NCBI RefSeq assembly: GCF_028641065.1 | Contig: NC_073416.1 | Location: 372,001 to 436,000, forward strand | Direction of reading: 5' to 3' | From: Leucoraja erinacea | Lineage: Eukaryota | Length of the DNA stretch: 64,000 bases | Shown: positions 7,440 through 61,544 of the stretch, one piece after another | How the letters are laid out: each line of letters begins with the position of its first letter | Numbering within the stretch: position 1 is the stretch's first letter | Made by a program: the position numbers and the translations under genes | Notes under the pieces: model-generated | The model's input: the letters and a program-made list of their open reading frames with translations, nothing else | Told to the model about the DNA's origin: nothing | Databases searched by the model: none

Positions 7440-8110
7440 GAGTCAGCGATATTTTCTTCCCTTCCCTCCCGCACCACCCCCTCCCCGGGCACTTTCCGTT
7501 GCAACCGCAAGAAATGCAACACTTGTCCCTTCACCTCCCCCCTCGACTCCATTCAAGGACCCAAGCAGTCGTTCCAGGTGCGACAAAGGTTCACCTGCAT
7601 CTCCTCCAACCTCATCTACTGCATCCACTGCTCTAGGTGTCAGCTGATCTACATCGGGGAGACTAAGCGGAGGTTGGGCGATCGTTTCGCCGAACACCTC
7701 CGCAATAACCAACCTGATCTCCCGGTGGCTCAGCACTTCAACTCCCCCTCCCATTCCCAATCCAACCTCTCTGTCCCGGGTCTCCTCCATTGTCAGAGTG
7801 AGCAACAGTGGAAATTTGGAGGAACAGCACCTCATATTCCGCCTGGGTTGCTTGCGTCCTGATGGCATGAACGTTGAATTCTCCCAATTTTGCTGTCTCC
7901 TCCCCTTCCTTAACCCTCAAGCTGTCTCCTCCCACCCTCCTATCCGCCCGGCCCTCGGGCTCCTCCTCCTCCCCTTTTCCTTCCTTCTTCCCCCCTCCAC
8001 CCCCCATCAGTCTGAAGAAGGGTTTCGGCCCGAAACGTCGCCTATTTCCTTCGCTCCATAGATGCTGCTGCACCCGCTGAGTTTCTCCAGCATTTTTGTG
8101 TACCTTTTAT
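7440..8110 (+). mobile_element. Penelope-like element 3' part (GIY-YIG endonuclease plus pseudo-LTR)
   Basis: RFTCISSNLIYCIHCSRCQLIYIGETKRRLGDRFAEHLR...VAQHFN...EEQHLIFRLG...GMN is a PLE GIY-YIG domain (frameshifted). It is followed by a pyrimidine tract and a hammerhead-like motif at 8012-8039. Confidence 0.88.
8012..8039 (+). ncRNA. Minimal hammerhead-ribozyme-like motif downstream of the PLE ORF
   Basis: CTGAAGA-A-GGG-tttcgg-CCC-GAAA-CGTC, located in the pseudo-LTR after the GIY-YIG coding remnant. Confidence 0.5.
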
Positions 8111-9742
8111 ATTTTCTTGTTATATGTTCCGAGGCGCTGTAAAATGCTTTGCTCTGCTGACAACCGTGTAAAAGCCTATAGCACACCTCGCCCTGACAGT
8201 AGGCATGATGGGGCGGACAATGTTACAGAAGTTCACCGCACTGTCCTATCTACCGCCTGTCAACGCACGTCCCCATCGTTCTCGACAGCGCCCCTCTGCC
8301 CGTACATCTTTGGCTTGATTATGCAAGTAGAGCTGGGGGAATGTGGAGGGTCACATCTTCCACAGAGTGGGGAGTGAAAAGGTGAGATCCTTCCCCCCCT
8401 CATCACCCCACCACCTCCGACGAACGTTTATAACAAAAATAACCCAGATGCTGGAAATCTGAAACAAAGACGGAAAATGCTGGAAGGTTTGGTAGCATCC
8501 GTGGACAGAGAGACAAAATGACCAGGTTCCAGGTGTGGAGCCATTCATTGAAAGCTCCAAGACCTCAGTTCAATAGTTTTTCCTTGTCGGTGAGTGGGAA
8601 AGCGGGATATGTCACAAAGCCCGGAATATGAAGTTAGCTTTAGGTTGAGCTGCGCTCTGTCTAGGACAGCCTAGGGTCGGGCAGTCGGATGGTTTTTCAA
8701 GCTTGCTGGTGGAGTATGGCAAGTTGTATAGGTAAAGAAGATAGGCAAAAAGTGCTGGAGTAACTCAGCGGGACAGGCAGTATCTCTGGAGAGAAGGAAT
8801 AGGTGGCATTTCGGGTCAAGACCCTTCTTCACACAAGGAACTTTCTGATGATAGACACAAAATGTTGGAGTAACTCAGCGGGACAGGCAGCATCTCTGGA
8901 GAAAAGGAATGGGTGGCGTTTCGGATCGAGATATGTCGACCCGACACGTCACCCATTCCTTCTCTCCAGAGACGCTGCCTGTCCCGCTGAGTTACTCCAG
9001 CTTTCTGTGTCTATCTTCAGTGCAAACCAGCATCTGCAGTTCCTTGGTAGACAAAAATGCTGGAGAAACTCAGCGGGTGCAGCAGCGTCTATGGAGCGAA
9101 GGAAATAGGCAGCGTTTCGGGCCGAAACCCTTCTTCAGGGTGCCGTCTGTACGTTCTGCAGTTCCTTCCTACACACATGTTTGCTTTCTATTTCTTCCAC
9201 ACTTTCAGCAGGCACAACTTTATTTTGGTTCCACCAAGAAACTTTGTTTCTGTGTAAGATAGTTTGCAAAAGTGCCTTTCCCCCCCCCTCCAAGATGAGA
9301 ACAGCGAACTACTTGAAACAAATCTGGGTTTGCCAGCTGGCAGTGTGTCATCTTTGGTTGGCAATCGCTAGAATCCAAGAACAGTTTCTTTCAGAGGAGT
9401 TTAACTGGGTGCAGAGCCACAAGCCTACTGTTGGTCTTCAGCCCACAGACTTGGAACAGTCAAAGGACAAGTTCGCACTGCTCTTTATGACTTGGGAATG
9501 TGTCTACATGCAGCTCAGACACGGACCCTCCAGCTCAATGTGTCCACACTAACCACTATGGACCCCTCTGCACTAATCCCATTCACCAGAACTTTGCTCG
9601 TAGCTTCTCTGCTTTGGCAATTCAGGTGCTGGTCCAGATACCACTTGCATGTTGTGAGAGTCACAACCTCCACCACCCACTCAGCCAGCATGCTCATCTC
9701 GGTCCTAAAAAATTTCCCCTTTATCCTTAAACTGTGACCCCA

Positions 9743-10303
9743 GACTGAGACTGAGGAGACTGAAGAAGGTCCACCTGTCTCCTCAGATCCTGGTGAACTT
9801 CTACCGCTGCACCATCGAGAGCATCCTTACCAACTGCATCACAGTATGGTATGGCAACTGCTCTGTCTCCGACCGGAAGGCATTGCGGAGGGTGGTGAAA
9901 ATTGCCCAACGCATCACCGGTTCCTCGCTCCCCTCCATTGAGTCTGTCCAAAGCAAGCGCTGTCTGCGGAGGGCGCTCAGCATCGCCAAGGACTGCTCTC
10001 ACCCCAACCATGGACTGTTTACCCTCCTACCATCCGGGAGGCGCTACAGGTCTCTCCGTTGCCGAACCAGCAGGTCGAGGAACAGCTTCTTTCCGGCGGC
10101 TGTCACTCTACTCAACAACGTCAGTGACTCGGTGACTGCCAATCACCACCCCACCCCCCGCCCCCGGACACTTATTATTATTTATTCAAACCGTTTGCTA
10201 TGTCGCTCTTCCAGGGAGATGCTAAATGCATTTCGTTGTCTCTGTACTGTACACTGACAATGACAATTAAAATTGAATCTGAATCTGAATCTGAATCTGA
10301 ATC
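9743..10303 (+). mobile_element. Rex1/Babar-type LINE 3' end
   Basis: FYRCTIESILTNCITVWYG...HPNHGLFTLLPSGRRYRSL...NSFFP and a (GAATCT)n tail. The same tail is at 34395-34650, 42225-42400 and 45146-45198. Confidence 0.85.
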
Positions 10304-10583
10304 TTGTTCTGGATATCCTCCCTTATTCCTTTATCCTGTGGACGGCTCGATTGTAATCATGTATTGTCTTTCCGCTGACTGGTTAGCACGCAACAGAAGC
10401 TTTTCACTGTACCTCGGTACACGTGACAATAAACTGAACTGAGCTGAACAAGCTGAAGAGCTGCTGCTTCTCAATTTGACACCCCATAAGGAATCTAGTT
10501 TGCGAAAGACAACTGGTGAAGAGAAATAGAAAGCAACGTGATTTTTCTGTTGATTCTGAAATGTGTTTTGTTTGTGCGTGCAG

Positions 10584-10713
10584 CTCTCAGACACCAAATC
10601 GACGGATCGGAAGCTGACCCTGCTGCACTACATTGCGATCGTCGTGAAGAGGAAGTACTGCAACATCGCCACCTTCTGGAACGAGCTGCATTACATCGAG
10701 AAAGCCGCAGCAG
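10584..10713 (+). CDS. FMNL3: FMNL3 exon (FH2)
   Basis: gtgCAG| acceptor and G|gtcggt donor. Encodes [43 protein letters not shown], containing the FH2 TLLH motif. Confidence 0.93.
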
Positions 10714-10759
10714 GTCGGTGCCAACTTTCTGCTCCAGCTGCCTGCTGTCAACAAGAGAT

Positions 10760-11243
10760 TAGAAACATAGAAACATAGAAATTAGGTGCAGGAGTAGGCC
10801 ATTCGGCCCTTCGAGCCTGCACCGCCATTCAATATGATCATGGCTGATCATCCAACTCAGTATCCCGTACCTGCCTTCTCTCCATACCCTCTGATCCCCT
10901 TGGCCACAAGGGCCACATCTAACTCCCTCTTAAATATAGCCAATGAACTGTGGCCTCAACTACCCTCTGTGGCAGAGAGTTCCAGAGATTCACCACTCTC
11001 TGTGTGGAAAAAGTTCTCCTCATCTCGGTTTTAAAGGATTTCCCCCTTATCCTTAAGCTGTGACCCCTTGTCCTGGACTTCCCCAACATCGGGAACAATC
11101 TTCCTGCATCTAGCCTGTCCAACCCCTTAAGAATTTTGTGAGTTTCTATAAGATCCCCTCTCAATCTCCTAAACTCTAGAGAGTATAAACCAAGTCTATC
11201 CAGTCTTTCTTCATAAGACAGTCCTGACATCCCAGGAATCAGA
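10760..11243 (-). mobile_element. CR1 LINE 3' end
   Basis: ORF 10919-11230(-) GLSYEERLDRLGLYSLE and an (ACATAGAA)n tail, about 45 bp from an FMNL3 donor. Confidence 0.9.
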
Positions 11244-11264
11244 TTGGCAGAGTTTAACTTCTGT

Positions 11265-13870: not shown

Positions 13871-14034
13871 CTAAAATGTCCATTATCTCATTCAATTGCT
13901 TGACAAAAGTGTACGAGGGAGGGAGAGACTGTGTTCCTCAAAGGATTCTCCGATCTTGTGTGTGTGGGGGGGCTTTCTGAGCAAGGAGATGGCCATTGTG
14001 ATGGGCTTCCTGACCGTTTCATTTTTTCCCACAG

Positions 14035-15752: not shown

Positions 15753-15982
15753 GGTTACACAAAAAAGCTGGAGAAACTCAGCGGGTGCAGCAGCATCTAT
15801 GGAGCGAAGGAAATGGGCAACGTTTCGGGCCGAAACCCTGAAGGAAGTAGGCAACGTTTCGGGCCGAAACCCTTCTTCAGACATATCTGCATATCTGCAG
15901 TTCCCTCTTAAACTGCACCCGCTGAGTTTCTCCAGCTTTTTTGTGTAACCTTCGATTCTCCAGCATCTGCAGTTCCCTCTTA
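15753..15982. mobile_element. Short Penelope-derived palindromic insertion with 14-bp TSD
   Basis: AGCAATTGGATCAT at 15739-15752 and 15983-15996 flanks inverted pseudo-LTR halves. Confidence 0.8.
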
Positions 15983-16799
15983 AGCAATTGGATCATATTT
16001 GACACTTAGATTTGACACACCAGACAGCACTTAGTCTAATTCCCAATGTCTCAAACAAAAATGGAACTATTTTTCATGACGTTCTGATGATTTTCTCCGG
16101 AGATTTTGCTCGTGGTCAAGTCCTGGAAATGAATCTGCGATTTCTGGGGACTCCACGGCGTTCTTGGAAAGCTGACAACACAAGTGCTCGGAGCTGCAAA
16201 CAGATTTCCAAAGGGGGTTTGCTGTGATTTTCTTCCAAGTGGCCACGGCACAAAGTGAACAATAGTTTGGCGGAATCACGCCCTGGGACAGGATATGTCA
16301 AACAAATTGCAAAGTGGGCGTTCCACGCTGTCCCTGTCCTGGTTTTGCAGAGAATCCCAGCCAGGTTCTCCGCTGAAGGGCGGGGAGGGACTGGGATGAA
16401 ATGGAATGTGTGGGAAAATGTTTGACTACCGACAACTCCCGGCCAAGTTTTTGAATCAACATTACTGGTGAGAAAATGATGGCAAGACTGCAACAAAATC
16501 TTTAAAACAGCAGAGAAGAGGTGGGGGGGGGGGGGTCATTGCTTCTTGACGTTTAGCACTAACGCCTAGTTGCTTGACCCGTGACCTTTCAGCGCGGAAA
16601 CAGGCCCTTCGGCCCACCGAGTCCGCACCTTCCCCACGTGCACTAAAACCATCCTACACACACTAGGAACAATCTTTACATTTATGCAAAGCCGATTAAC
16701 CTACAAACCCGCACGTCTTTGGAGTGTGGGAGGAAACCGGAGCACCCGGAGAAAACCCACGCAGGTCACGGGGAGAACGTGCAAACTCCGTACAGACAA

Positions 16800-18547: not shown

Positions 18548-19311
18548 TGGAATGAAAGCCCTAATTCTGTGCAGCATCATCATTCTAGGGAATGGAAGCG
18601 GAAGCAGGGCTGCTCAAGTGAGAGGAGCAAGGTGTCCACGTCAAGAATCTGAAACCTCAGGGTTTATTGCTGAAAAGTCTGCTACCACACGAACACGCCC
18701 AAGGAAAAACGTTTCAGGCCCTCTGAAAGGTACTTTTCAGGCCGCAAACCTCTGTATTCAAATAGGCAACAGAAAGTTTTACACTAGAATAAAACAACAT
18801 TCCACCACCATAAATGGCTTCATATCAAAAGGAATTGATGGCGAACAAAAATGCTAGAAACTCAGCGGGGTAGCACAATTAGGAGTTCAGGAGAAAGGCG
18901 TTTCGGAAACCCTCGTGCCCCAATGCATATTTCCTTCAGGATTTCGAGTCAAATCGTCCCGAAACGTTGCCTAGTTTCCTTCAGTGATTTCGGGTCTGAA
19001 GAAGGGTTTCGGCCCTGAAACGTGCCCCAACGTCTGAAGAAGGGTTTTACCTATACTCACATAGATGCTGCTGCACCCGCTGAGTTTCTCCAGCATTTTT
19101 TTATTTTCCAGCATCTGCCACAGTTCCTCTTAACCCTGAAGCGGCTCACCAGTTAGTAGCCCCCTAAACTTCTTTCCCTCCCCCCTCCGTACAGCACCCG
19201 TAGTATGGGACTGACTGGCCTGTGAGGCAACACTCTACCCGCTGCGCCACCGCTCCTCCACCACCGCTCTGCCGCGCGCGCCGTTGGTCCAGAGCTCCGT
19301 TCGGCCTCCAG

Positions 19312-21799: not shown

Positions 21800-23081
21800 G
21801 TAATGCTTGACTATATCCCAGCACACAGTGGAGACACTGGAGAGACACAGTGTTTCAAGGCTTATGGTTTGCCACAGTCTGTCGGAAGGAACTGCAGATG
21901 CTGGTTTAAACCGAAGATACCCTTGTAGACACAAAAAGCTCAGAGGGACAGGCAGCATCTCTGGAGACAGGGAATGGGTGACATTTCGGGTCAGACTCGT
22001 TTTCACACTGAACTCAAACTTTCAGTCTTGATCCAGAATATTACCCATTCCTTCTCTCCAGAGATGCTGCCTGTCCCACTGAGTTACTCCAGCACTTTGT
22101 GATTTTCCACAGTGATGGGCTTGTGTACATTTGATTCGCTTCCAGTGAGGTTTTATTTGGCAAGCATCCCTGCACTGGATGTCAGCACCACCGACCTTCA
22201 TTTTCTTGCTGTAAACTTGACTTGGTTGCAACAATTGCATGCCAAGACTAACAGCATTGTTTGAGTGCAGGCGGCTTCCCTTGTTCCGCTAGAACTAATC
22301 GCCTTGTAACTGTTTGATTGTGTGGCCAAGCATTTCTTGCTGTGGTGTTTGCAATCCATTTTTTGTTGGGAGCTCAGTCATAGAGTGATACAGTGTGGAA
22401 ACAGACCCTTCAGCCCAACTTGCCCATGCCGACCAACATGTCCCAGCTACACTAGACCCACCTGCCCGCGCTTGTCATATCCTATCCGTTCCTGTCTTCA
22501 ACATAGCGATAGTCCCTGCCTCAACGATCTCCTCGGCTGTCATTAAATGAGGGGGGCTATGAAAGGCACCCCCAGCCCCCTTTTACAACGTGTAGGAAGG
22601 AACTGCAGATGCTGGTTTAAATCGAACCTTGATGGACATAAGCTTCATGGAGCGACTGGCCATTTAATATCCCTATGCTTATGTATCCTCCCATCAATAG
22701 CCGACCAACACGAAGCAGTATGAATCTGGAAGTAGGATTAGAGGAGAGTCCGAGCTGTATGGTGCTAGATTCAGCTCTGCGGTGGTGCAGCCTAGTGTCT
22801 CTGCGCAAGACGCTGCATTTTCTGTGCGTTTGTCCCAGTCTCGCATGTTGGCTAATGATCCAGCACCGAGCCAGCAAGAGGAGGTCTTTCAAAGGTTGCA
22901 CTTTCCAACGTGTGTTTTGTTTTTTAATGCATTGTGAGGATATTAAGGCTCTTGCTATTGCTATGATTTGATGTGGTTTCTCTTTCTTGCCCCTTCCCCC
23001 GACCCTTTTGCTTCCTTCCCTCTCCCCCCTCCTCTCGCCCTTCCTCCCTTCCCCCTCTCTCACACGATCCTCCTCCTGCAG

Positions 23082-27645: not shown

Positions 27646-29164
27646 ACTGTGAAAGCAGTTTTATTTATTGGAATGCATTTTTTCTTAAATTATGTTCGTA
27701 AACATTGCTGTCCAAAGACTACACAATTATTTAAAGCAGGATCTTTTGCTATGGTTTCAAAGTAATTCATTGGTCTTTCATTTCCCAATGCGCTACTAAC
27801 CCGTAGAGCAAAATTAGTTTGATCGCCGGTAGGAAATGTCAATATATATTATTTCTTCTGCAACCCCCAAGAATGACTCGATCTGCCAGTGATGTCCTGG
27901 ATTGCATCACTAGTTCGGTTCAGTGGGAGGGAACCAAGAGGAGGGAATGACACAAAATGCTGGAGTAACTCAGCGGGACAGGCAGCGAGAAGGTGAGAAG
28001 GAATGGGTGACAGCAGGATGGTACAGTAATGTCGCCCTTGTGCAAGGAATAGATGAGTAAGTGGGATAACACCGTGTGAAAGGGTGATCGATGGTTCGAG
28101 TCTGAAGAGGGGTCTCAACCTGAAACGTCACCCATTCCTTCTCTCCAGAGACGCTGCCTGTCCCTGCTGAGTTACTCCAGCACTTTGTGTTTCTCTTCGG
28201 TTTAACAGCATCTGCAGTTCCTTCCCACACATGAGGATGGAATGGATTTGCAATAAAATTAAAACCTCCAGTGGTAGTTAAGGAAAAGGTAAGCTATGGA
28301 CTTGGGGAAAATAGTCTTCAAAATAATCTATACCTTGTACAAATCCATAACGCTGCCTCTGTATTTTTCTTGCCTTTTTTCCATGTATTCCGTATGAAGT
28401 ATTTAGTTTATATTTTAACCATTCCAATTCATTCCAAATTCTACAATCTTGTAGCTGACTGTATCTTTTCATTCATGTGTGTAAAAAAAAGTTCAATTAT
28501 CTCCAATTTTCAATGTTATTTTAATAATCTGTTTTAAAACAAATCTATGCCAAAGTTGAGACTTTCCGTCTCTTCAGCAATTCTGTATATATTATTCTTA
28601 ATAATTATTATAAATCCACCTCTCTGGTCTAAGTGTTGTGATTTATCTGTTAAATTAGTTTTGTTTAATTTAGAGAAACAGGCCCTTCAGCCCACTGAGT
28701 CTATACCGACCAGCGATCCCCGCACACTAACACGATCCCACACACACATCAAGCCAATTAACCTACAAACCTGTACGTCCGTCTTTGGAGTGTGGGAGGA
28801 AACCGAAGATCTTGGACAAAACCCACGCGGGTCACGGGGAGAACGTGCAAACTCCGTACAGACAGCGCCCGTAGTCGGGATCTACTGCTGCATCACCGTG
28901 CTGCCCATAAATGTTCTATTGAATGTTGATCACCAGTGTTTCTAGTGGCCATTGGTTTTGGGATGGTGGGGGCGGAATTGTGGAGAGGCATGAAGAACAA
29001 AGCAACTGGAATCCAGAGGAAGAATTCATGTCCGAGTGTGCAGCATGAAAGCAAAGAAGCTGCTGCTTCCAACGGCATCACTCTCAGAATCACGCAAACC
29101 TCTTCACCACGACAAGGTAAACAATACGATGAGGAGTGGGAGAGTATGTGTGAGAGTGTCTGAA

Positions 29165-30300: not shown

Positions 30301-30515
30301 TGCACCAGTGTGTGTGGGGGAGGGTGTGTGCAAATGAGAGTGCAAATGCGTGTGCAAGCGACAGAGGTTGCATGTTATCAATTGTATCGGAGAGTGAACA
30401 AGCGAGTATGTGTGATAGTGTCTGAGTGACTGCATGTATGAATGAGTGTGTGTGTGGCAGTGTGCATGGGAGAGTGAGTGAGTGTGACAATGAAAGATGT
30501 ATGTGCCCAAGGTAG

Positions 30516-30686
30516 GCACAAAAAGCTGGAGTAACTCAGCGGGACGGGCAGCATCTCTGGAGAGGAGGAATGGGCGACGTTTCAGGCCGAGAAAGTCTGA
30601 AGAAGGGTCTCGACCTGAAACGTCAGCCATTCCCTCTCTCCAGAGATGCTGCCCGTCCCGCTGAGTTACTCCAGCTTTTTGTGTCC
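30516..30686. mobile_element. Palindromic Penelope-derived element (similar copies at about 8745-9175, 27945-28230, 43757-43920, 52165-52390)
   Basis: Arms gctggagtaactcagcgggacgggcagcatctctggaga and its reverse complement, with a CTGAAGA...GAAACGTC motif at 30597-30624. Confidence 0.75.
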
Positions 30687-33499: not shown

Positions 33500-33812
33500 A
33501 CATTTTAGCTTTCATTCCCATACTGTTCTGCCCTGGGCCTCCTCCACTGTCAGAGTGAGGCCACACACAAATAGGAGCTACAGCACCTCATATTTTGTTT
33601 GACCAGCTTACAACACAGCGGGGACAGGCAGCATCTCTGGAAGGAAGGAAAGGCTGACGTTTTGGGTCGAGACACTTCTTCAATCTGACGAAGGGTCTCG
33701 ACCCGAAAAGTCACCCATTCCTTCTCTCCAGAGATGCTGCCCGTCCCGCTGAGTTCCCCCAGCGTTTTGTGTCTCTCTTTGGTTTAAACCAGCATCTGCA
33801 GTTCCTTCTGAC
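33500..33812 (+). mobile_element. Penelope-like GIY-YIG remnant plus palindromic pseudo-LTR
   Basis: GLLHCQSEA..K.ELQHLIF..L remnant followed by an inverted pseudo-LTR pair with a CTGACGA core at 33685. Confidence 0.7.
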
Positions 33813-34255
33813 ACAGCTTGGATGGACTGTCTGGATTGAGAGAGGTGCTTGGACACTAAGTGGTGGCAGATGAGGGTCTGGGCTGCAGAGCCGTTGGATC
33901 AGCGCCAGGATTGGGGAGTGGTGGATGGTGGAGAGGGTGGTGCTATTCATGAATGGAAAGGGACTAACAGACGTGTCTCACAAGTGTCCCAGTCAAATTC
34001 TCCGTTGCCTCAGTAGCAAGCAACATCTTATGTCCCCAGGTCAAGAGGACCCTGCACCTCCTGCCATGTCCCTAAGGGTTGAATGACCATCCCCAAAATC
34101 CTGTTGGTGTAACTTGCAACAGTGTTCAGTTAACGGAGTCAAACAAAATAAATTAAAATATTTAACTCTGGGAGAAAAATATTATTTTAATTGCTGATCA
34201 AACACAAGACATCACATTGTCTTCTGACATTTACACAATATATATACATATGTAG

Positions 34256-37200
34256 AGGGAGTATTGTAATGTTAAACACAATCAGACACAAGCAGAGGTT
34301 GAACTCAAAGCAAGGTTGGTTTCAATGGAATGACACTCAGACAGGTGAGCCAAAGTTTAAAACAAAAGCTCTAATTATGTTCACACTAATGATGAGACAT
34401 TTCGTTGTCTCTGTACTGTACACTGACAATGACAATTAAATTGAATCTGAATGAGATAACGAGTTACAATGTGTTTGAATGTTAAAATGAAAATGATGAA
34501 CACATCAAAGTATAGTCGTAGAGTCTTACAGTGTGGATACAGATTCAGATTCAGATTCAGATTCAATTTTAATTGTCATTGTCAGTGTACAGTACAGAGA
34601 CAACGAAATGCATTTAGCATCTCCCTTGAAGAGCGACATAGCAAACGACATAGCATACAGGCCCTTCTGCCCAACTTGCCCACAGTGACCAACACCCCAT
34701 CTACACTAGTCCCACCTGCCTGCGCTTTGCCCAAATCCCTCTAAACCTGTCCTATCCGTTTGCCTGTCTAAATGTTTCTTAAATGTTGCAATATCACCTA
34801 CCTCAACCACCTCCTCCGGCAGCTCGTTCCATACACCCACCACCTTTTGTGTGAAAAATTTACCGCTCAGGTGAATGGTGAGTCTCTGGAATTCTCTGCC
34901 ACAGAAGGCAGTTGAGGCCACAGTTCATTGGCTATATTTAAGAGGGAGTTAGATGTGGCTAAAGGGATCAGGGGGTATGGAGAGAAGGCAGGTACAGGAT
35001 ACTGGGTTGGATGATCAGCCATGATCATATTGAATGGCGGTGCAGGCTCGAAGGGCCAAATGGCCTCTACTCCTGCACCTATTGTCTATGTTTCTATGTT
35101 TCTATGTATCTATGTAACAGGCAGCATTTCTGGAGAAAAGGAATGGGTGACATTTCGGGTTGAGAACCTTCTTCAGACTGATAGTCGGGAGAGAGGGAGA
35201 TACAAAGCTAAGGAAGTGTAATTTCACCCCTCTAAACCTTTTTTCCCCATGACATCCCCAGTCATTATTGGGAAAGTTAAAATTCCCTACTACGACAACC
35301 TACTGCCTGCAATCTTCCGGCACATTTGCTCTTCTGGTTAGGGGCCTGTAGTACACCCTCAACAAGGTGATCATTCCCTTTTTAATCCTCAGCTCCATTC
35401 ATATAGCCTCACTAGACAAACCGTCTGTAATGTTCCCTCTGACCACAGCTATGACATCCTCCCCAACCATTAACACAACACCCCCTCCCCTTTTACCCTC
35501 ACCTCTGTCACTCCTGAAACACCTGTAACCTTGGAACATTGAGCTGCCAGTCCTGGCCCTCTCTTAAGCAGGTTTCCATAATGGTAACAACATCCCAGTC
35601 GCACGTACCTATCTATACCCTAAGCTCACCTGCCTTTCCCCGTCAGGCCCTTTACATTAAAATACGTTCAATTTATGAATCAATGAAACAATTTTACTGC
35701 AAATTTCACTTCATAAACTGATTGAAGTTGTGTATTTTTTTCTTTCATCTATTGTGCATTATTTTATATTTCAGTGTCTGCTTTTTTGCATTACAGCCTA
35801 ATTCCCAAAGAGCTTGAAGCTTTTCTTAAGGATCTGAAAGATAATGTGTACAAGTTGAGTTCAAATATGCTGGCCTTATTAGGTTAGAATTGTACGTGCT
35901 GGATCTGAACATACAAGATAGCAATGAATAAGACAGATATAAGGGGTGCAATCCAGGAAGTGGTGTTCTCATATATTTGGTTACATTAAAATTTCAAAAG
36001 CATGAGATTTCAAAGGTAGCACAATTTTAAATCAAATATACATTAGCAATTCTTTTTATACTCCCTGGGTGTAGAGATGTTACCTGTTTGCACTTTAAAC
36101 AAGTCAAACTAGTTTGGGTACACTCAGTTCATGATTCCTTCAACACCCTATAATTATTGACATTACTTTTAATTCACATGACTAAGTGAAATGCCACCCC
36201 TTGAGCTCGCCTCAACACAATATTTGGAATGCATTCAAAGGTATACATAGTCACATCCAGCCATTTTACCACTGCGAATTGCCCATAAACTTCATTGATG
36301 AGTGTGTGTAAAACTAAGCCACCATTCTGAGCCACAATGCTTCTAAACATGGCTTGAAGGGCCGAATGGCCTCCTCCTGCACCTATTTTCTAAACAGCAA
36401 CGTTCTGGATGGTGGTCTTTGGCAAATTTTAGTCAAAACACCAGGATAATTAATTCCCTTTTAGACAATAGACAAATGACAATAGGTGCAGGAGTAGAGG
36501 CCATTCGGCCCTTCCAGCCAGCACCGCCATTCAATATGATCATGGCTGATCATCCAACTCAGTATCCTGTACCTGCCTTCTCTCCATACCACCTGATCCC
36601 TTTAGCCACAAGGGCCACATTTAACTCCCTCTTAAATATAGCCAATGAACTGTGGCCTCAACTACCATCACCATTCCTTCTCTCCAGAGATGCTGCCTGT
36701 CCCGCTGAGTTACTCCAGCATTTTGTGTCCAGCATATGGCTAGAAGGTTTACTGTTGAATGCACTGTGACTGTGACTCGGTCACTGCCACTGAGTGACTG
36801 CATAGCTCATGGAACTCCACATCACAGCTGGGGATGGAGGTGTTATATCACCTAGATTGCAGCAATGGCTCACCTCTAGAAGTGGGAATTGAGAAACAGT
36901 TAGCCGATCTGATGATCAGAAGAGAAGATGACAAATATATCCATGATATTTGACACAACTTAGTTGGACATTGTCCTCAGCAGAGCAGCATTACAGATAC
37001 ATCATGAAAATGGGGTACAATTGAGACATCTTTGATGATGAAGTCCTGTTGCTTGAGGATTGCACTGTTCAATTCCTTTCACAATGCCTCAGCAAATGAA
37101 GCAATGTATGCCGGCTTGCAACAATAGCAGCATGACAAATCAGAAAATGAGAAATTTACTTGCATTTGTATAACACTGACAAAGGTAGGCCTATGCAATT

Positions 37201-37432: not shown

Positions 37433-38381
37433 AAGGTCCCATAACCCCGGGAACCATTAAAACAGAATGATGCTAAACCTGGAACAAAACGGAGAAAATA
37501 ATCGACATTTAGCCATAATTGGGCTGGGAAATAGCCAACATTTCGGCACCTGGTTTTTATTTGATAAATCCCCTTGCAGTAAAATGAATGTATCAGGTAG
37601 AAGATGTCTTGAAGCAGGGTCTTGAGCCAAAACGTCAACAATTCCTTTGCCCCAACAGATGGTTTATAACGAGGGAGATATTAGATTGTGTAAAACAGAG
37701 TGTAGGTGTGGATAGGCAAAAAATGCTGGAGAAACTCAGCAGGTGCAGCAGCATCTATGGAGCGAAGGAAATAGGCAACGTTTTTTGGTCCTCCAAAATA
37801 TTCCAAATGGATTTTAAACTGTGGAGGTGGTGACGGGGTGGCTTAAGCCAGAAAGGGTTATTGGGAAGAAAGATCAACATGGACTCGGTGGGCTTCCATG
37901 CTGTACCTCTAAACTAAACTCAAATGAAAGTGGAGAAGACAAAATAGTAGTGGTGGTGGAATGATGAGAAAGAAAGATTGGGGGAGGGGGGGGGGGGGGG
38001 GGGGAGAAATGTAGAACCACATGGAGGGATGGTGGGAAGATGGGAATGAGGTGTGGGCGTGAGAAAGAAAAGTGGGGGCAATTTTCCCAGAGTATGGAGT
38101 TTATTCATAAAATATACAAACAAAAACGATGCAAAATTCTTGCTATATTCTTGATGTTCACACATTCAATCGTGCTGGGGTTTGACCCAGTATTGTTCCC
38201 ACCTCTCTTTCTCTTCACACAGCAAAATTGCAGACGCCTTTTCAAGTCGGGACCCTTTATTAGACTGATAGGTAGGAGGGGAATCAGAGGTAGTTGTGGG
38301 GCAAAGTCTGGCAAGTGATAGGTGGAAGGTAGACAAAAATGCTGGAGAAACTCAGCGGGTGCAGCAGCATCTATGTGGAGC

Positions 38382-38620
38382 GAAGGAAAGAGGCGACGTT
38401 TCGGGCCGAAACCCTGAAGGAAATAGGCAACGTTTCGGGCTGAAACCCTGAAGGAAATAGGCAACGTTTCGGGCCGAAACCCGGAAGGAAATAGGCAACG
38501 TTTCGGGCCGAAACCCTGAAGGAAATAGGCAACGTTTCGGGCCGAAACCCGGAAGGAAATAGGCAACGTTTCAGGCCGAAACCCGGAAGGGTTTCGGCCC
38601 GAAACGTTACCTATTTCCTT
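38382..38620. repeat. 34-bp tandem array (about 6 units) inside a pseudo-LTR
   Basis: Unit gaaggaaataggcaacgtttcgggccgaaaccc(t/g), followed by an inverted copy. Confidence 0.9.
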
Positions 38621-39399
38621 CGCTCAGCGGGTGCAGCAGCTCTCCGGGAGAGGAGAGGGCAATGCCCATGTGGATGATATATAATAGCAACCGATGTTGG
38701 TGAAACCTGTTTCCCAATAGGCTGCTTCAGTACTTCCCACAATGCCTTCAGCCTTCCCATTCCCTTTACATAGAAACATAGACAATAGGTGCAGGAGTAG
38801 AGGCCATTCGGCCCTTCGAGCCTGCACCATTCGCCATTCAATATGAGCATGGCTGATCATCCAACTCAGTATCCCATCCCTGCCTTCTCTCCATACCCCC
38901 TGATCCCTTTAGCCACAAGGGCCACATCTAACTCCCTGTTATGATTGTGTTTATAATTTGTTTGGTTGTTTTGTTGTTTGTCTTTTGCACAAAGTCCGCG
39001 AGCATTGCCACTTTCATTTCACTGCACATCTCGTATGTGTATGTGACAAATAAACTTGACTTGACTTGACTTGACTTAAATATAGCCAATGAACTGTGTG
39101 TGGCCTCAACTACCTTCTGTGGCAGAGAGTTCCACAGATTCACCACTCTCTTTGCTCCCCATTACCTAAATGACTGCTTCCCGAGTTAAATGACCTCACC
39201 CCTTACACTTCATAGCATTGGAGGAGCATGAAAAGTGTGATCTGTAAGTGTCGGCACCATCTGAGAAGTCAGCTGACAGAGCAGCTGCTATCCTTGGATT
39301 TGCCCAAGGCGTGGAAGCAAAGTACGAATTTCATTGTCCAATGGGACACATGACAATAAACTCTCTTGGATCTTGAATGAACCAAAACGTATTATAAAG

Positions 39400-43583: not shown

Positions 43584-44185
43584 TTCCACAGCAGTCTTCA
43601 CCAAACACTCTTTGCGTTCCACACTGCCCTCTGAGGAGAGCCACCTCTCCCCAAATGGCCAAAAAAACCAAACAGAAAACGCTGGAAAAACTCAGCAGGC
43701 CGAGCAGAAACTGTGGAGAGATGAACAGTTAAGGGAAGAAGGGTTTCGGCCCGAATGCTGGAGAAACTCAGCGGGTGCAGCAGCATCTATGTGGAGCGAG
43801 GGAAATAGGCAACGCTTTGGGACGAAACCCTGAAGGAAATAGGCAACGTTTCGGGCCAAAACCCGGAAGGGTTTCGGCCCGAAACGTTACCTATTTCCTT
43901 CGCTCCATAGATGCTGCTGCAATTTTTTTCCCCAAAACTTCCAGCAGGCCAGAACCAGAATTTCGGGTAATTTTCGTCAAAGCTGATAGCTCTCCAATTT
44001 TGTTTTTCTCTGGATTATTTTTATTCTGGGAAAAAAACCCCACCTTGGCTGGAGGCCCCCTAGATTTTGAGGCCCTAGGCTTCAGCCCATGAAGCCTATA
44101 GGTAAATCCGGCCCTGCCAAGGCCCCCCTAGATCTCGAGGCCCTAAACTTAAGCTTGTGAAGCTTATACGTAAATCCGACCCTGA

Positions 44186-44300: not shown

Positions 44301-44773
44301 TCACCTGAGCACAATCGCAAAGGTAGAAATAAAATGAAACAGCTTCAAGTCAATCCGTTTTAAAACTGTCTGGGCTGTTGGTGAGCGGTTGGGGAAATGT
44401 CTCAATTCCATTGCGTAATACTATGTCATAATCATCTGCCATCATCTGACTGAACCTGAGGAACATCACGGGAGCTTGTAAGCTTTTTAATATGTTCTGA
44501 CTGAAGTTAAGACATGTGCCAGCCCCCAATTAGATATATTTCTTATGTAGACTCACAATTTACTGATGCATAACACCACAACTGCCTGCAGCTGCATGAC
44601 TACATCCCCCTTTGCTCTTGCCAAAACTTTCGAGTTTTTGCCCCAATTTGGTGCCCTATATCCAGAACCCAATCCAGACTTGCCGAAAGAATCCAGGAAA
44701 TTGGCGTAAACTCAATTATAGAATCAGACGCAAAGTGCTGGAGTAAGTTAGCGGGTGAAGCAAGCATCTCAGT

Positions 44774-44801
44774 CTGATGAAGGGTGTCGACCCGAAACGT
44801 C
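44774..44801 (+). ncRNA. Minimal hammerhead-ribozyme-like motif (Penelope pseudo-LTR)
   Basis: CTGATGA-A-GGGT-gtcg-ACCC-GAAA-CGTC gives the core, stem II, GAAA and a GUC triplet. Stem III can form only as a palindromic ACGT dimer and stem I is weak. Confidence 0.55.
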
Positions 44802-45305
44802 ACCTATTTCCTTCGCTCCATAGATGCTGCCTGTCCCGCTGAGTTGGGGAGGTCAGCTCTCCTCATCCGTCGAAGGAAGTGGAGGCGTTGCTGTGCCTTC
44901 TTGACTAGGGAGACGGTGTTGGTGGGCCATGTCTGATCATCTGTGACGTGCACTCCCAAGAACTTCAGCGACAATGTTACAAAGCAGAATCACTTCGAAA
45001 CAAACTTCTAGTTAAATAGTCGGTGCATCAACATGAGCCTCAACACGGCAGTAGGTCTCATCCTTGTAGGCAAGGTTTCCCACCTGATTTCACTCAGCTT
45101 GTATCACTAATACAAGAGTACAGCGAACATAAATATGGCATGGCTCAGATTCAGATTCAATTTTAATTGTCATTGTCAGTGTACAGTACAGAGACAACAG
45201 TACGAAACAGAGTCTACATAAGAAATATATCTCATTGGGGGCTGGCACATGTCTTAACTTCAGTCAGAACATATTAAAAAGCTTACAATGGCATCACCAA
45301 AGATA

Positions 45306-45713
45306 AGGTAGATACAAAATGCTGGAGAAACTCAGCGGGTGCAGCAGCATCTATGGAGCGAGGGAAATAGGCAACGCTTTGGGACGAAACCCTGAAGGAA
45401 ATAGGCAACGTTTAAGAGGGAACTGCAGATGCTGGAAAATCGAAGGTAGACAAAAATGCTGGAGAAACTCAGCGGGTGCAGCAGCATCTATGTGGAGCGA
45501 AGGAAATAGGCAACGTTTCGGGATGAAACCCTTCTTCAGACCCGAAATCCTGAAGGAAATAGGCAACGTTTCGGGCCGAAACCCTTCTGGGTTTCGGCCC
45601 GAAACGTTACCTATTTCCTTCGCTCCATAGATGCTGCTGCACCCGCTGAGTTTCTCCAGCATTTTTTGTCTACCTTCGATTTTCCAGCATCTGCAGTTCC
45701 TTCTTGAACACCG
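45306..45713. mobile_element. Penelope-derived composite insertion with 9-bp TSD
   Basis: CCAAAGATA at 45297-45305 and 45714-45722. Interior contains tandem and inverted pseudo-LTR copies. Confidence 0.7.
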
Positions 45714-47275
45714 CCAAAGATATATTGGGTTACAATCCCATTCTCCTGCCTTCTCCCCATAACCCTCGACACCCTATTCTAATCAAGAATTTGTCCATCT
45801 CTGCCTTAGAAATATCCGCCGACTCGGCCTCCACAAGCCCTCTGTAGCAATGAGTTCCGCAGATTCACCACCCTCTGACTAAAGAAGTTCCTCCTCACCT
45901 CCTTTCTAAAAGAGCGCCCTTTAATCCTGAGGCTGTGTCCTGGACTCTCCCACCAGTAGGAAACATCCTCTCCACATCCACTCTATCTATGCCTTTCATT
46001 ATTCGGTGACGTTTCAATGAGGTCCCCTGCCTCTCATCTTTCTAAACTCCAGCGAGTACAGGCCCAGTGCCGCCAAACGCTCATCGTATGTTAACCCACT
46101 CATTCCTGTGATCGTTCTTGTAAACCTCCCCTGGACCCTCTAAAGAGCCAGCGCATCCTTCCTCCTCTCTCTTGTTTCCCTTTCCCCCCGACTCTAGTCT
46201 GAGGAAGGGTCTCGGCCCGAAACGTCATCCATTCATTCCTTCTCTCCAGAGATGCTGCCTGTCCCGCTGAGTTACTCCAGCGTCTTGTGTCTACCTCCAT
46301 TGCTCAATACTGCATTCGGCGCACAGACTGTTTCCGGAGCAGTGTTGGAACCCGCGGCCATCTGAGTAACTCCATTCTGAACCATTCTGGGCCGGCCGTC
46401 TGTGAGTGACTTTGACTGTTAGGGTTAATTGGTGGCGGGGAAGACCAGACGGATCCAGTGTAACAGCTGTCAGAACCCTTCAACTTTCTCAGAACTAGGA
46501 ACTGGAAAATGACCCAATTCATTTGCATATTTTATTGTACCTGAAAGAAACAATGATGGGAATGATAGTGTCACAGTTCTATTGCAATGAGCTTCTGTAG
46601 GGAAGTCAGCCTTCTCACGCAACACTATAACCCACAGGCTACTGGTGGTGTTCTGCCGATCCCAATACGCAGGTTCGATCCTGTCTGTGCGCACGTTCTC
46701 CCTGTGGCCACGTGAGTTTCCTCCAGGTGCCTCGGTTTGCTCCCACATCCCACAGGCGTTTGGGTTGCGAGGTTGATAGGGCTTCTGTAAATTGCAACCA
46801 CTGTGCTGGTGAACGGTGGGATGTGGGGGGGTGGAGAGAGAATAGGTTGCAGGGAACTAGTTGGGGGAACCGGACAGATGGGATTGATCAGAGAGCTGAC
46901 ATAGACAGTGCATCTTCTTATGTGTTGAGAATTGTGATGGACTTGAGAATCATGAGGGTGGCATGATGTTTAGTCACAAGCCAAGTGCACATTTCACCAG
47001 ACCCCTGGGGTCATTTATCAGTCCCATGGATAATCTGTTTGGATGAGCTTTTGTCTTGAAATATGCTGGAGTTTTCCTTCTGTGGAAGGAGGGAGTAGAA
47101 AGCTTTGGTGCATAAAGTGAGTTTGTGATCGTTTTCAGATTCGACTGGCAAGACTGCTGGGTCGGAGTTCATTCGAGATTGGGTTTGGAAGTACAAGACT
47201 GTTTGTGCATTCGAGCTTGGGTTTGGAAGTACAAATACTGTATGTGTGCTGTAGAAATAGGTTATTCAGGGTGTG

Positions 47276-51832: not shown

Positions 51833-53321
51833 ACGAAATGTGTGAAGGTAAGGAGGGGGGAAGGTCGATGTTTCAAGTCAGTGCTGCTTTGTCCTGCTGA
51901 GTCCTTTCAGCAGCTTATTTTTGCTCAATCCCTGGGGATTGTCTAAGAAAAGGAAGTTGATTCACAAGGTAACGACATGCCAACTCTCATCATGGAGTCA
52001 CAGCCAAGTCAAGTCCCACGGCAACTCACTGAACAAAAAGGAACTGAGATGAAAACAGTTGACACATCCCTCAAAAAGCTGACGGCTCATTTCAGATTTG
52101 CCAGATACTAGAGATACTGCAATCTTGAGCACAAAACAAACTGATGGAGGAACTTGAAGACAGGCTCAAAGTGCTGGAGTAACTCAGAGGGACAGGCAGC
52201 GTTTCTGGAGAGAAGGAATAGGTGACGTTTCAGGTCGAGACCCGTTTTCAACGAAGTCTGAAGAAGGGTCTCGACCCGAAACGTCACCCATTCCCTTCTC
52301 TCCAGAGACGCTGCCTGTCCCGCTGAGTTACTCCAGCACTTCGAGCCTATCTTCAATTTAAACCAGCATCTGCAGTTCCTTCCTGCACATGATGGAGGAA
52401 CTCAATGAGGCAGGCAGGGAAATGGGCAGATGATGTTTCAAGTCGGGACCCTTCCTCAGACTGATGTAGCAAGAGGGGAGATTGACTGGTGGACCGAGGT
52501 GAGGGGAAGGGGTGGGGCAAGTGAATTGGGAATGCAGGTAAGCAGGGTGGTGATAGTAACCAATGCTGGAGGGTGATCAGTGGCGCAGCTGATAGAACTG
52601 CCTCCGCCTCACAGCGCCAGAGAAACTCGGGTTCCATCCTGTCCTCGGGTGCTGTCTGTGTGGAGTTTGCACGTTCTCCCTGTGACTGGTGCTCCAGTTT
52701 CCTCCCACATCCCAGGTCTGTGGGTTAACTGGCCTTCTGTAAACCTGCCCCTCATGTGTAAGGGGGGTGGGGGGGTGCAAAAATGGGTACCTAGTGTGAA
52801 TGGGTGATGGTCAACATGGACTCGGTGGGCCGAAGGGCCTGCTTCCATGCTGTACCTCTAAACTAAACTCAAATGAAGGTAGAGAAGACAAAATAGTAGT
52901 GGTGGTGGAATGATGAGAAAGAAAGATTGGGGAGGGGGGGGGAGAGAAATGTAGAACCAGTTGGAGGGATGGTGGGAAGATGGGAATGAGGTGGGGGCGT
53001 GAGAAAGAGAAGTGCGGGCAATTTTCCCAGAGTAGGGAGTTTATTCATAAAATATACAAACAAAAACGATGCAAAATTCTTGCTATATTCTTGGTGTTCA
53101 CACATTCAATCGTGCTGGGGTTTGACCCAGTATTGTTTGCACCTCTCTTTCTCTTCACACAGCAAAATTGCAGGCGCCTTTTCAAGTCGGGACCTTTTAT
53201 TAGACTGATAGGTAGGAGGGGAATCAGAGGTAGTTGTGGGGCAAAGTCTGGCAAGTGATAGGTGGAAGGTAAACAAAAATGCTGGAGAAACTCAGCGGGT
53301 GCAGCAGCATCTATGTGGAGC

Positions 53322-53800
53322 GAAGGAAATAGGCCGAAACCCAGAAGGAAATAGGCAACGTTTCGGGCCGAAACCCGGAAGGAAATAGGCAACGTTTCGG
53401 GCCGAAACCCGGAAGGAAATAGGCAACGTTTCGGGCCGAAACCCTGAAGGAAATAGGCAACGTTTCGGCCCAAAACCCTGAAGGAAATAGGCAACGTTTC
53501 GGGCCAAACCCTGAAGGAAATAGGCAACGTTTCGGGCCGAAACCCTGAAGGAAATAGGCAATGTTTCGGGACGAAACCCAAAAGGAAATAGGCAACGTTT
53601 CGGGCCGAAACCCTGAAGGAAATAGGCAACGTTTCGGGCCGAAACCCGGAAGGAAATAGGCAACGTTTCGGGCCGAAACCCGGAAGGAAATAGGCAACGT
53701 TTCGGGCCGAAACCCTGAAGGAAATAGGCAACGTTTCGGGCCAAAACCCTGAAGGAAATAGGCAAGGGTTTCGGCCCAAAACGTTACCTATTTCCTTCGC
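53322..53800. repeat. 34-bp tandem array (about 12 full units) inside a pseudo-LTR
   Basis: Same unit as at 38382. It produces the periodic FRVSARNVAYFLQGFGPKRCLFPSG ORFs. Confidence 0.92.
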
Positions 53801-54237
53801 TCCACATAGATGCTGCTGCACCCGCTGAGTTTCTCCAGCATTTTTGTCTACCTTCGATTTTCCAGCATCTGCAGTTCCTTCTTAAACACGAGTGAATAGT
53901 GGATACAGGGGAGTGGGAGAAGGTTGTGGCAGATGGGGAAAGATAATGACAAAGGCTAGAGGTGAAAAGGAGACAAAAAAAATTGTCAGGTAGAGACGGA
54001 GGGGAAAGTCGTGAAGTTTGAAGCTGGAGGGAGTGATGTGTGGGGGAGGGGTGGAGGAGAACGGGGTGATACGAGAGAAACGGGGCCTCAGACATGGTCG
54101 TATGGTGGGGGAAAGGAGGAGGGTGACGGGCGCGGTGGGAGAAATGTGTGTGTGCGCGGGTGGGAAGAAGCATTGTGTGCAAAAAGGAACTGCAGATGCT
54201 GGAAAATCGAAGGTACACAAAAAAAACATTGGAAGCA

Positions 54238-56218: not shown

Positions 56219-56267
56219 GTGAGTTTATATTTAAAAAATTCCCCTGTGCTAATTCCCCTTTTAACAG

Positions 56268-56505
56268 AGGGAACTGTGCAGATGCTGGAAAATCGAAGGT
56301 ACACAAAAAAAGCTGGAGGAACTCAGCGGGTGCAGCAGCATCTATGGAGTGAAGGAAATAGGCAACGTTTCAGGCTGAAACCTGAAGGAAATAGACAACG
56401 TTTCGGGCCGAAACCCGAAGGGTTTCGTCCCGAAACGTTGCCTATTTCCTTCGCTCCATAGATGCTGCTGCACCCGCTGAGTTCCTCCAGCTTTTTTTGT
56501 GTACG
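56268..56505. mobile_element. Penelope-derived palindromic insertion with 15-bp TSD in the CD63 intron
   Basis: TTCCCCTTTTAACAG at 56253-56267 and 56506-56520. Confidence 0.82.
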
Positions 56506-57181
56506 TTCCCCTTTTAACAGTGTCTCGTTTTGGTGATGAAACACAACTTACTTTGGCAAAACTTTTTTTAAGAATGTTTTGAAATAACATCTAGCAGTGT
56601 GTTCAGAATGGGGCCGGGTTAAATGTAGCCCTTTAAAATTTTCTAGGCTTTTTGTAACGCAGATTTGCTTTTCTACACTTGGCATTCGCCGACATTAAAT
56701 CGCTTTTTCCTTCTCGCCTTTCTGTTTTATTTAAAAAAAAAACCCAAAAAAACAACTCCAAAGCAAATGCTCTTTATTTTTGCCAAGGAAAGTAAAAGTG
56801 GACAATTTGATGGGGAATTCAGAAATAGCTGATTGAGTTCTGCATTCTACATTTGGCTGGGTGTACAGCGCTTGTACATTGCTTTTCGTGAAAGGGGGGG
56901 AGAATTGTTTTGAGGGGGGAGGGTTATGTGAGAAGAAGGATTTTCTTTTACAAACGGCAGGGTGTTGAGGACTTATTCAAAAATCGTACAATGATCATTT
57001 ATCCTGTGTCTCGTCTGACCAGGCATGTCCCTTCCACTTGTAACTGCGACAACCTACTGTTTCCTAATGGGCAAACTCGAGGCGAGGATGGGGTGGGGGT
57101 GGGATGGAATGGGGCTGATTGGAGGGGGTTGAGGGGTCGGGGTTAACTCCTGAACGTGTGACAAGGAATCGCCTCTGCCTG

Positions 57182-60200: not shown

Positions 60201-60235
60201 TGTCTGGAGGACATGGAAGGTGTTCCGTTAAAATT

Positions 60236-60266
<31 letters not shown>

Positions 60267-60721
60267 CTTTCATGTTAGAATTTGTTTTAGTTGGAACAGA
60301 ACACAGCTTTATCAGCGCAGTTTACTATTACTGGAGATGTGTAAGCAACCTGCCAGGCAGGAACTAGAGGCCTAACAACATCTTGTTGCAAGGCTGACAA
60401 GTAGTCTTCGTGTTGGCTCGGGGAGTTTCCGTTTGAACTTCACAGGGCAGAGGGGGAGGGGGTAAAACCCAAATAATCATTAACTTTGTCTTTCCGGAGT
60501 TAGATTGCAATCATTGCACTCAGTTTGTGATTATAACACTCCTCACAGCAAAAAATATAATTTATAGCCTTGTAATGTTCTAGCCCAAGTGTTTACATGA
60601 AGGCAGGGTGGCACAGTGGTAGAGTTGCTGTATTACATGTACCTTCTCCCCGTCACCATGTGGGTTTTCTCCGAGATCTTCAGTTTCCTTCCACACTCCA
60701 AAGACGTGCAGGTTTGTAGGT

Positions 60722-60897
60722 CTTTGGAGTCCCTTTCTTGTCCCCACCCACCCCCACCCCCGATCAGTCTGAAGAAGGGTTTCGGCCCGAAACGTTGCCT
60801 ATTTCCTTCGCTCCATAGATGCTGCTGCACCCGCTGAGTTTCTCCAGCTTTTTTGTGTACCTTCGATTCTCCAGCATCTGCAGTTCCCTCTTAAACA
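60722..60897 (+). mobile_element. Penelope pseudo-LTR inserted in a SINE, 13-bp TSD
   Basis: CAGGTTTGTAGGT at 60709-60721 and 60898-60910. Hammerhead-like core at 60769-60796. Confidence 0.8.
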
Positions 60898-61544
60898 CAG
60901 GTTTGTAGGTTAATTGGCTTGGTAAATGTAAAAATTGTCGTGTGTGAGTGTGTGTGTGGTGTTAGTGTAGGGGATCGCTGGCCGGCACGGACCCGGTGGG
61001 CCGAAGGGCCTGTTTCCGTGCTGTATCTCTAAACTAAACTCAATGATGTTATTGGGGCATGATCCAATTAAGATGCTTGAGGGACTGAATGGCTATGTCT
61101 TCACTATTACACTCCGAGATGATTATCTGCCTGGGCAGAAGGAGACTGTTCTGAACAAATTCTTAGCCTTCCCAGTTATTTTCCACCTCCACAACTGAAG
61201 CCCAGACAGTGTGTCATCAGGTGCTTGCCCCACATGTGGGTGGAGAATTACACTTAACTGCTAGCCTCGCACCTCTTTAGTCGGATGCAACTTGTATAGA
61301 CTGTTCTGCTGCCTCGCCCACACTGAATGTTGCACCATGTGGTGGGACCCGATTCCTGGTATGGGATGGTCATGCTTAGCAACGAGCTGCCGATGCTGGT
61401 TTACACCAAGGATACACACACAATGCTGGGAGTAACAGCGGGACGGGCAGCATCTCTGGAGAAAAGGAATGTGTGATGTTTCTGGCTGGGACCCTTCTTC
61501 AGACTGACGTTTCAGGTCGAGACCCTTCAGCCTGAAGAAGGGAG

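Follow-up and report, generated by a model that had tools for sequence, protein, structure and literature searches.

We analyzed a 64,000-nucleotide stretch of the Leucoraja erinacea genome (contig NC_073416.1, positions 372,001 to 436,000, forward strand), hereafter the window, for which the first-pass annotation had proposed an abundant family of short Penelope-derived insertions carrying hammerhead ribozyme-like cores. On the plus strand, a 3' open reading frame (ORF) remnant at 7459..7896 encodes a C-x4-C-x2-C linker and a GIY-YIG endonuclease and is frameshifted near 7815. It is followed by pyrimidine-rich untranslated or pseudo-long terminal repeat (pseudo-LTR) sequence (7897..8011), ending in what appears to be a splice-acceptor-like YAG/T, and then at 8012..8107 by a minimal hammerhead (8012-8039, GUC cleavage triplet) and the run to a short 3' end. 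A 10-bp repeat at 7449 and 8109 flanks this copy and may be its target duplication. We assign the copy to subfamily A; a copy of a second subfamily, B, lies on the minus strand at 5225..5660, with an endonuclease C-terminus at ~5491-5658, an untranslated region and a core at 5281. Both subfamilies continue upstream into GIY-YIG endonuclease-coding sequence, which upholds the pseudo-LTR origin and endonuclease link that had been proposed. The coding remnant said to stand directly before the motif at 8012 is real, but it ends at ~7896, leaving ~115 untranslated bases in between.

The remnant at 7459-7896 matches PF01541 with an E of 2.4e-4 and 21.8 bits, just under the curated cut-off of 22.6. 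It has 26 homologues, the best being skate proteins (74% and 71%), followed by ray and shark proteins, and the longer ones carry a reverse transcriptase (RT) upstream. Its C-terminal GIY-YIG domain, supported by these homologues, places the source among the endonuclease-bearing Penelope-like elements. Residues C15, C20, C58, C61, H80 and H93 of the CX2-5CxxC linker and CCHH motif, as found in Neptune elements, are invariant in 9 of 9 aligned sequences, and the third linker cysteine is present in the translated remnant. The linker is common to Neptune and Nematis, to which it was assigned by Craig et al. 2021 (PMC8557442). In a recent preprint (bioRxiv 10.64898/2026.07.22.740005), the only vertebrate Penelope-like clades reported are Neptune and Poseidon, and a whale shark preprint notes an expansion of Penelope-like elements. 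The source element is likely to be of the Neptune clade, to judge from its protein motifs.

We number positions from hammerhead C3 as +1, so that the predicted cut follows +28. All seven cores cited in the first-pass annotation were located, stated variants included, and the position that it predicted for cleavage, after 44801, is right. With ≤2 mismatches allowed, a degenerate pattern of the 24-nt core gave 17 matches in the window and none in 100 dinucleotide shuffles, while a profile built from 13 window copies gave 77 family matches and none in five controls (the reversed window and four shuffles). These matches occupy 5,553 of 64,000 bases (8.7%), in agreement with the claimed abundance. 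A strict minimal-hammerhead descriptor accepted seven sites in the window (8012+, 15880-, 44774+, 45539-, 46199+, 52258+ and 60769+; GUC at four, GUU at three) and none in 50 shuffles. Each combines CUGANGA, an extra nucleotide, a stem II with G10.1-C11.1, GAAA, a palindromic 15.2-16.2 and a UH. Five of the seven cited cores are among them, whereas those at 30597 and 33685 fail the descriptor. The hammerhead of the window copies has its extra nucleotide after A9, a palindromic 15.2/16.2, no stem III and, as had been remarked, a stem I of 2 bp. Subfamily A has a UUCG stem II loop and copies ~3% from the majority sequence, subfamily B a CUCG loop and copies ~7% from it, and older types are present besides. 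We conclude that the repeats carry the known minimal type I hammerhead of Penelope-like pseudo-LTRs, and that they are truncated, often inverted retrotransposon ends that are very abundant in the genome, the inserted copies likely being inactive.

A chance motif is ruled out by the shuffle and reversed-window controls of profile, pattern and descriptor. An Rfam scan of the window (E≤1) returned 25 matches, none of them a hammerhead and none reaching its own gathering score; the microRNA-like matches examined coincide with inverted pairs, and microRNA precursors were rejected as an explanation. A further 37 loci from a metagenome scan were treated as chance because their profile matches were either missing (22) or weak (15, ≤16 bits) and restricted to the searched 19-mer.

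Fifty arms of the copies were tabulated, five of them set by eye, after exclusion of minisatellite units, seven weak or redundant matches and the duplicate locus at 38323. Their 3' ends fall into two classes at about +95 and +130 from C3: 19 lie at +88..+102 and 17 at +120 or beyond, with none between and 14 shorter. The ~35 nt separating the two classes are referred to here as the tail. At the 5' side, six arms reach -16 or further upstream, 16 begin at -7..+2 and another 16 at +5..+14, the remainder starting at +20..+27 (3), +28..+32 (2) or beyond +40 (7). That is, 38 of 50 arms begin upstream of +15, and 2 of 50 near the cut site (+28..+32). Thirteen loci are head-to-head pairs with their 3' ends outward. 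Nine of the ten that could be classified pair a short end with a long one (p=0.011, tested against 0.5), the inverted junctions vary between loci, and the tail can be on either arm. Direct repeats of 9-15 bp flank 6 of 28 loci, compared to 0.3% of random pairs, and none of ≥9 bp was found at the other 22. Four of the six enclose an inverted pair, indicating that each such pair is a single insertion. The copies thus display an inverted 5'-truncated arm, a tail at one end and target duplications, all of them insertion features of Penelope-like elements. The sharp 5' boundary and the pairing of short with long ends are the features that deserve genome-wide attention.

Target duplications enclose the inverted A insertion at 15753..15986 (14 bp; core 15880 (-), GUU), the compound inverted A insertion at 45305..45712 (9 bp; core 45539 (-), GUU), the inverted B pair at 52155..52385 (13 bp; core 52258, GUC), the inverted A pair at 56264..56508 (15 bp; long and short ends, without CUGANGA) and the solo A copy at 60722..60898 (plus strand, 13 bp; core 60769, GUU, long end with tail). 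Inverted B pairs are also found at 8845..9046 (short and long ends, both arms without CUGANGA), 21880..22101 (one long, one short end), 27946..28231 (core at 28102) and 30506..30686 (both ends short, core at 30597), and, on the plus strand at 33515..33815, behind a third endonuclease remnant (33515-33612; core 33685, long 3' end). Subfamily A is further represented by a degenerate inverted pair at 18833..19133 (core at 18996), by an inverted pair with a 34-bp unit at 43754..43921 (without CUGANGA) and by two inverted insertions with 34-bp minisatellites, one at 53263..53890 (array 53332-53782, 13.3 copies; unit +8..+41, without CUGANGA) and its local duplicate at 38323..38652 (array 38382-38590, 6.1 copies). 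An inverted pair at 44725..44845 (core 44774, GUC) has mixed A and B letters. Native upstream sequence is kept by a B copy at 35117..35215 (minus strand; core 35176, interrupted at ~+64) and by a solo B copy at 46150..46298 (plus strand; core 46199, GUC, short end). Two more minus-strand copies are a B copy with a long end at 61379..61545 (core at 61502) and an older third-type copy at 52389..52560 (core at 52459). In long copies, tail sequence (60875-60885) is predicted to pair with 60817-60826 (+49..+58), forming a long stem around the short-end site. The duplication that includes the hairpin insertion, along with an older third-type copy, spans ~700 bp at 93% identity (37892-38590 / 52841-53517).

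Many 5' ends cluster a short way upstream of the core, where a conserved site resembles a splice acceptor. In all six tabulated copies with native upstream sequence, the T at -1 directly follows a pyrimidine tract and YAG, although the upstream regions of A and B do not align with each other. Helix I is where the intron of Drosophila virilis Penelope ends (Cervera and De la Pena 2014, PMC4209133), so that the site may be an acceptor that has been conserved, and is a candidate 3' splice site at helix I in all subfamilies. The tract and YAG precede the -1 base at cores 5281-, 8012+, 35176-, 46199+, 52459- and 60769+, and likewise in degenerate copies near 53203- and 38265-.

Decay of the inserted copies looks neutral. 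Mismatch rates from 39 of 46 aligned arms (seven being excluded as other type, chimeric, duplicate or misaligned) were 6/134 at the 11 core positions and 25/929 over +29..+88 in subfamily A, and 12/163 and 77/1075, respectively, in subfamily B, where stem II (17/121) fared worse than the core. None of the four stem II pairs was changed on both sides in 20 of 22 anchored cores (two with indels excluded), the covariation score was reached by 102 of 500 shuffles, and the stems of A and B differ by pairing-compatible U-G/U-A swaps only. Neither the excess conservation of the core over its flanks nor the stem II covariation by which the first-pass annotation had proposed to judge a ribozyme family is seen in the window. 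In computed folds, the hammerhead-compatible structure lies 6-9 kcal/mol above the best one in 5 of 5 copies, explicit dimers are less stable than the best two-molecule fold by 20-23 kcal/mol, and z-scores of four copies are unremarkable (-0.22 to 1.17). The dispersed copies are predicted to be inactive. In A copies, the folds predict pairing of +6..+11 with +36..+41, over a span equal to that of the 34-bp unit.

Positions 7780-8140 were aligned at 85% likeness to DNA contigs (one set) and raw RNA reads (three runs) that carry the same species label. A total of 92,938 contigs aligned, and their summed depth, which is no copy number, was 13-30 million over 8014-8104, 0.25-1.45 million in the endonuclease part and 14 in unique flank. 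This shows that the family is genome-wide and dominated by its short end. About 17,200 of 12.9 million reads (~0.13%) matched in each of two oligo-dT runs (X23 and X24), with mate orientations evenly represented; the library may be unstranded. Among the positions listed, loose 5' ends peak at -5, -3 and -2, and those at 8010 agree at only 0.33, with no shared leader there. No depth step is apparent in X23 at the predicted cut (5,019/4,839/5,063), and no end pile-up is listed at 8039/8040. The search for RNA-seq 5' ends at the cut site that had been suggested therefore came out negative, a weak negative for these libraries, as oligo-dT and single-cell material is ill-suited to it. At position 17, U accounts for 54% of X23 reads and for 73% of contig depth; GUU is a less efficiently cleaved triplet than GUC. 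The 34-bp back-joint and opposite-strand joints are present in both DNA and RNA. No splice joint ending at 8010 was among the 15 of 124 joints listed, where a donor outside the aligned stretch would not show, and no variant in the two core boxes or at N7 was among the 40 of 180 variants listed. A loose-end group at -3 (8009), with the same consensus in both oligo-dT runs, is among the top positions there and not among the top DNA ones; a single strongly expressed locus or a spliced exon could account for it.

ORF continuity, two 3' end classes, pairs within target duplications and neutral-looking decay together make us fairly confident that the repeats are 5'-truncated or inverted pseudo-LTR ends of at least two endonuclease-bearing Penelope-like subfamilies, likely copied from uncleaved RNA by the elements' own RT. 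The 5' end pile-up and the short/long pairing both fit priming at two tail sites on uncleaved RNA. The mechanism that we envisage is modeled on the in vitro behavior of PAc (PMC11167929), which cuts and extends both target strands, has two adjacent internal RT start sites and uses uncleaved RNA as its main template, ribozyme cleavage not being needed. By analogy, the RT-endonuclease would nick target DNA and prime internally at either tail site downstream of the hammerhead, and the complementary DNA (cDNA) would read through the uncut ribozyme, mostly ending at helix I or a little upstream of it. If both target strands were primed, each at a different site, an inverted pair with the tail at one end would result. 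In subfamily A, both the +8 junctions and the 34-bp minisatellite are likely determined by the fold-back of +6..+11 on +36..+41. The hammerhead itself is probably of importance in source elements alone, either as a dimer or aided by protein; low activity of minimal hammerheads even as dimers has been reported (Cervera and De la Pena 2014, PMC4209133).

A bolder version is possible, if rather doubtful in our view. Run-off cDNA synthesis from the two tail sites, which would lie near the transcript 5' end, would give the short copies. It would have a fixed stop at helix I, at the position of a 3' splice site common to Drosophila Penelope and skate elements through conservation, and twin priming would make hairpin insertions in one step. 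If so, hundreds of thousands of hammerhead motifs would have spread through the genome by this run-off route, and the genome would be a natural read-out of the Penelope insertion mechanism.

Several points count against the origin from truncated pseudo-LTR ends and inactive copies. Neither RT sequence nor a full-length Penelope-like element is found within the window and, RT being absent, the clade assignment rests on the linker motif and relatives and not on a tree. Random truncation should leave a more diffuse 5' boundary than the one seen (16 of 50 arms at -7..+2), and a short non-autonomous master would also yield a sharp one. X23 depth rises from 68 to 4,493 between 7988-8000 and 8014-8026, although part of this step is due to B-type upstream sequence not aligning. 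N7, put forward as a free core position, is A in 17, G in 3, C in 1 and T in 1 of the 22 anchored cores; all four letters do occur, and it differs in 5 of 22 cores compared to 9 of 132 for the remaining six positions of the 5' box (p=0.03, one-sided), but the argument is weak because C3 differs just as often (5/22). Between the majority sequences of A and B, all 11 core positions agree, as against 10 differences at 60 downstream positions (p=0.16). The N7 excess and the identical A and B cores hint at selection on source ribozymes, which the pairing-compatible stem differences between A and B also favor. Further to that, the energy models omit tertiary contacts and protein help, and oligo-dT and single-cell libraries are poorly suited to 5'-OH ends.

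As to how the head-to-head repeats arise, self-priming on an antisense template, proposed by Arkhipova et al. 2013 (PMC3846280), is compatible with the window data as well. As to what the repeats are, a much less probable origin is a dedicated short non-autonomous element of ~100-135 nt, similar to a short interspersed element (SINE) or a miniature inverted-repeat transposable element (MITE), which would have arisen from the pseudo-LTR, in some cases as a ready-made hairpin, and been mobilized in trans as a family in its own right. The sharp 5' boundary at -5..-2 in both DNA and RNA speaks for such an element, as do the ~10- to 100-fold excess of the hammerhead part over the endonuclease part in summed contig depth (no copy number), the recurrence of A-type junctions at +8/+9 and the rearranged upstream sequence common to loci 18996 and 45539. 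However, inverted junctions vary by locus and either arm can bear the tail, six copies retain upstream sequence of varying length, which in two cases reaches the ORF, and the poor agreement (0.33) of loose 5' ends at 8010 gives no sign of a shared leader there.

Tandem arrays in the window bear on the question of retrozymes. The 34-bp unit (+8..+41) forms arrays of 13.3, 6.1 and ~2 copies, and a 66-bp unit derived from +22..+88 forms a minus-strand tandem of 2.6 copies at 1944..2116, without a hammerhead core. CUGANGA is found in none of the 34-bp or 66-bp arrays of the window, no tandem unit there bears a complete hammerhead, and intact motifs on the same strand are separated by at least 1,425 bases. 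By definition, a non-LTR retrozyme is a tandem repeat whose consecutive units each carry a hammerhead (PMC7229834; bioRxiv 10.64898/2026.07.22.740005); the 34-bp arrays, lacking CUGANGA, are ruled out as such. Retrozymes also have no coding sequence of their own, whereas A and B extend into the endonuclease ORF, though most copies are non-coding. A separate retrozyme-like, non-autonomous family, as first proposed, is therefore unsupported, in view of both the missing core-bearing tandem unit and the upstream continuity with the ORF, and a reading of the repeats as tandem retrozymes is not supported either. Tandem retrozymes have been reported in the single chondrichthyan sampled in the same preprint, and that family might be related to the one in the window. 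It is most unlikely that the copies represent monomers of an active non-LTR retrozyme, one that would cleave itself in dimeric form, circularize and be retrotransposed by the Penelope-like element: the seven descriptor-intact motifs with palindromic 15.2/16.2, the ~0.13% of poly(A) reads in X23 and X24, the chondrichthyan report and a few single contigs joining +88/+89 back to -3 would agree with it, but the window has no core-bearing tandem unit, 0 of 4 stem II pairs are doubly changed with 102 of 500 shuffles scoring as high, core conservation does not exceed that of the flank, ends of copies and reads fail to match the cut site, X23 and X24 reads split equally between mate orientations, and the dimer hammerhead is, in all 3 cases modeled, less stable than the best fold by 20-23 kcal/mol.

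The 34-bp minisatellites recur at the center of subfamily A hairpins (38382-38590, 53332-53782, 15806-15873, 43801-43870 and 56350-56421), are bounded by a short self-complementary pair and may serve as length-variable markers. The window contains other repeats as well. A dispersed ~300-bp repeat (6440-6740, 11267-11580, 13560-13875, 48415-48717 and others) resembles the elasmobranch HE1 SINE, and a dispersed 400-600 bp repeat ending in an 8-bp microsatellite (4585-5027, 10760-11248, 29157-29649, 41725-42229, 43155-43580, 49458-49874 and others) resembles the 3' ends of CR1-type long interspersed elements (LINEs). A 122-bp tandem is found at 29674-30286, and an unrelated 34-bp tandem array (63731-64000; 7.9 copies, 97% matches) runs off the window end. 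An inverted duplication of 453 bp at 97.6% identity (47973-48424 / 50964-51416) and an assembly gap of 264 N (47276-47539) complete the picture.

The skate copies resemble the minimal hammerheads of metazoan Penelope-like pseudo-LTRs (PMC4209133) in their extra nucleotide 9/10.1, G10.1-C11.1, palindromic 15.2-16.2 and lack of helix III, as well as in occurring mostly as single motifs of truncated elements and in close opposite-strand pairs. They differ in helix II (4 bp, compared to 7-8 bp in schistosome families) and mostly in helix I (2 bp, compared to a typical 4-5 bp, although 2 bp are also seen in D. virilis), and their density is far higher, with 7 intact motifs per 64 kb here and 4,000-9,000 per genome in coelacanth and Xenopus (PMC4209133). 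Elasmobranch terms do not occur in one of the two supplement files of that study (Cervera and De la Pena 2014), and a literature search, Dfam and Repbase lying outside it, found no account of the skate family or of Penelope twin priming. With Neptune-clade elements (PMC8557442; PMC3846280) the family shares a C-terminal GIY-YIG with the CX2-5CxxC linker, target duplications, 5' truncation, an inverted 5'-truncated copy and a 30-40 bp tail at one end. Unlike the Neptune elements described, most insertions here consist of the last 95-130 bases only, in a window without RT or a full element.

As in the Poseidon element of Anolis, PAc (Frangieh et al. 2024, PMC11167929), two sites downstream of the hammerhead define the tail, and in PAc these are RT start sites. 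The absence of RNA-seq ends at the cut is common to PAc and the skate copies. PAc, however, belongs to a different clade and was tested in vitro, where its ribozyme cleaves with protein help, while the skate copies are known from sequence alone. Non-LTR retrozymes (PMC7229834; bioRxiv 10.64898/2026.07.22.740005) are similar in being non-coding, in their type I hammerhead and in their kinship with Penelope pseudo-LTRs, but they form tandem arrays with a hammerhead in each unit and circular RNA, whereas the skate copies are solo or inverted and their arrays are devoid of the core. Compared with these systems, the window represents a very dense cartilaginous-fish example of a known arrangement, and cautions against counting such motifs as active ribozymes or retrozymes. 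Its value lies in numbers: the 5' ends, tails and junctions of many young copies could test Penelope-like priming and inverted-repeat formation, and the same copies could test whether the hammerhead acts before or after insertion.

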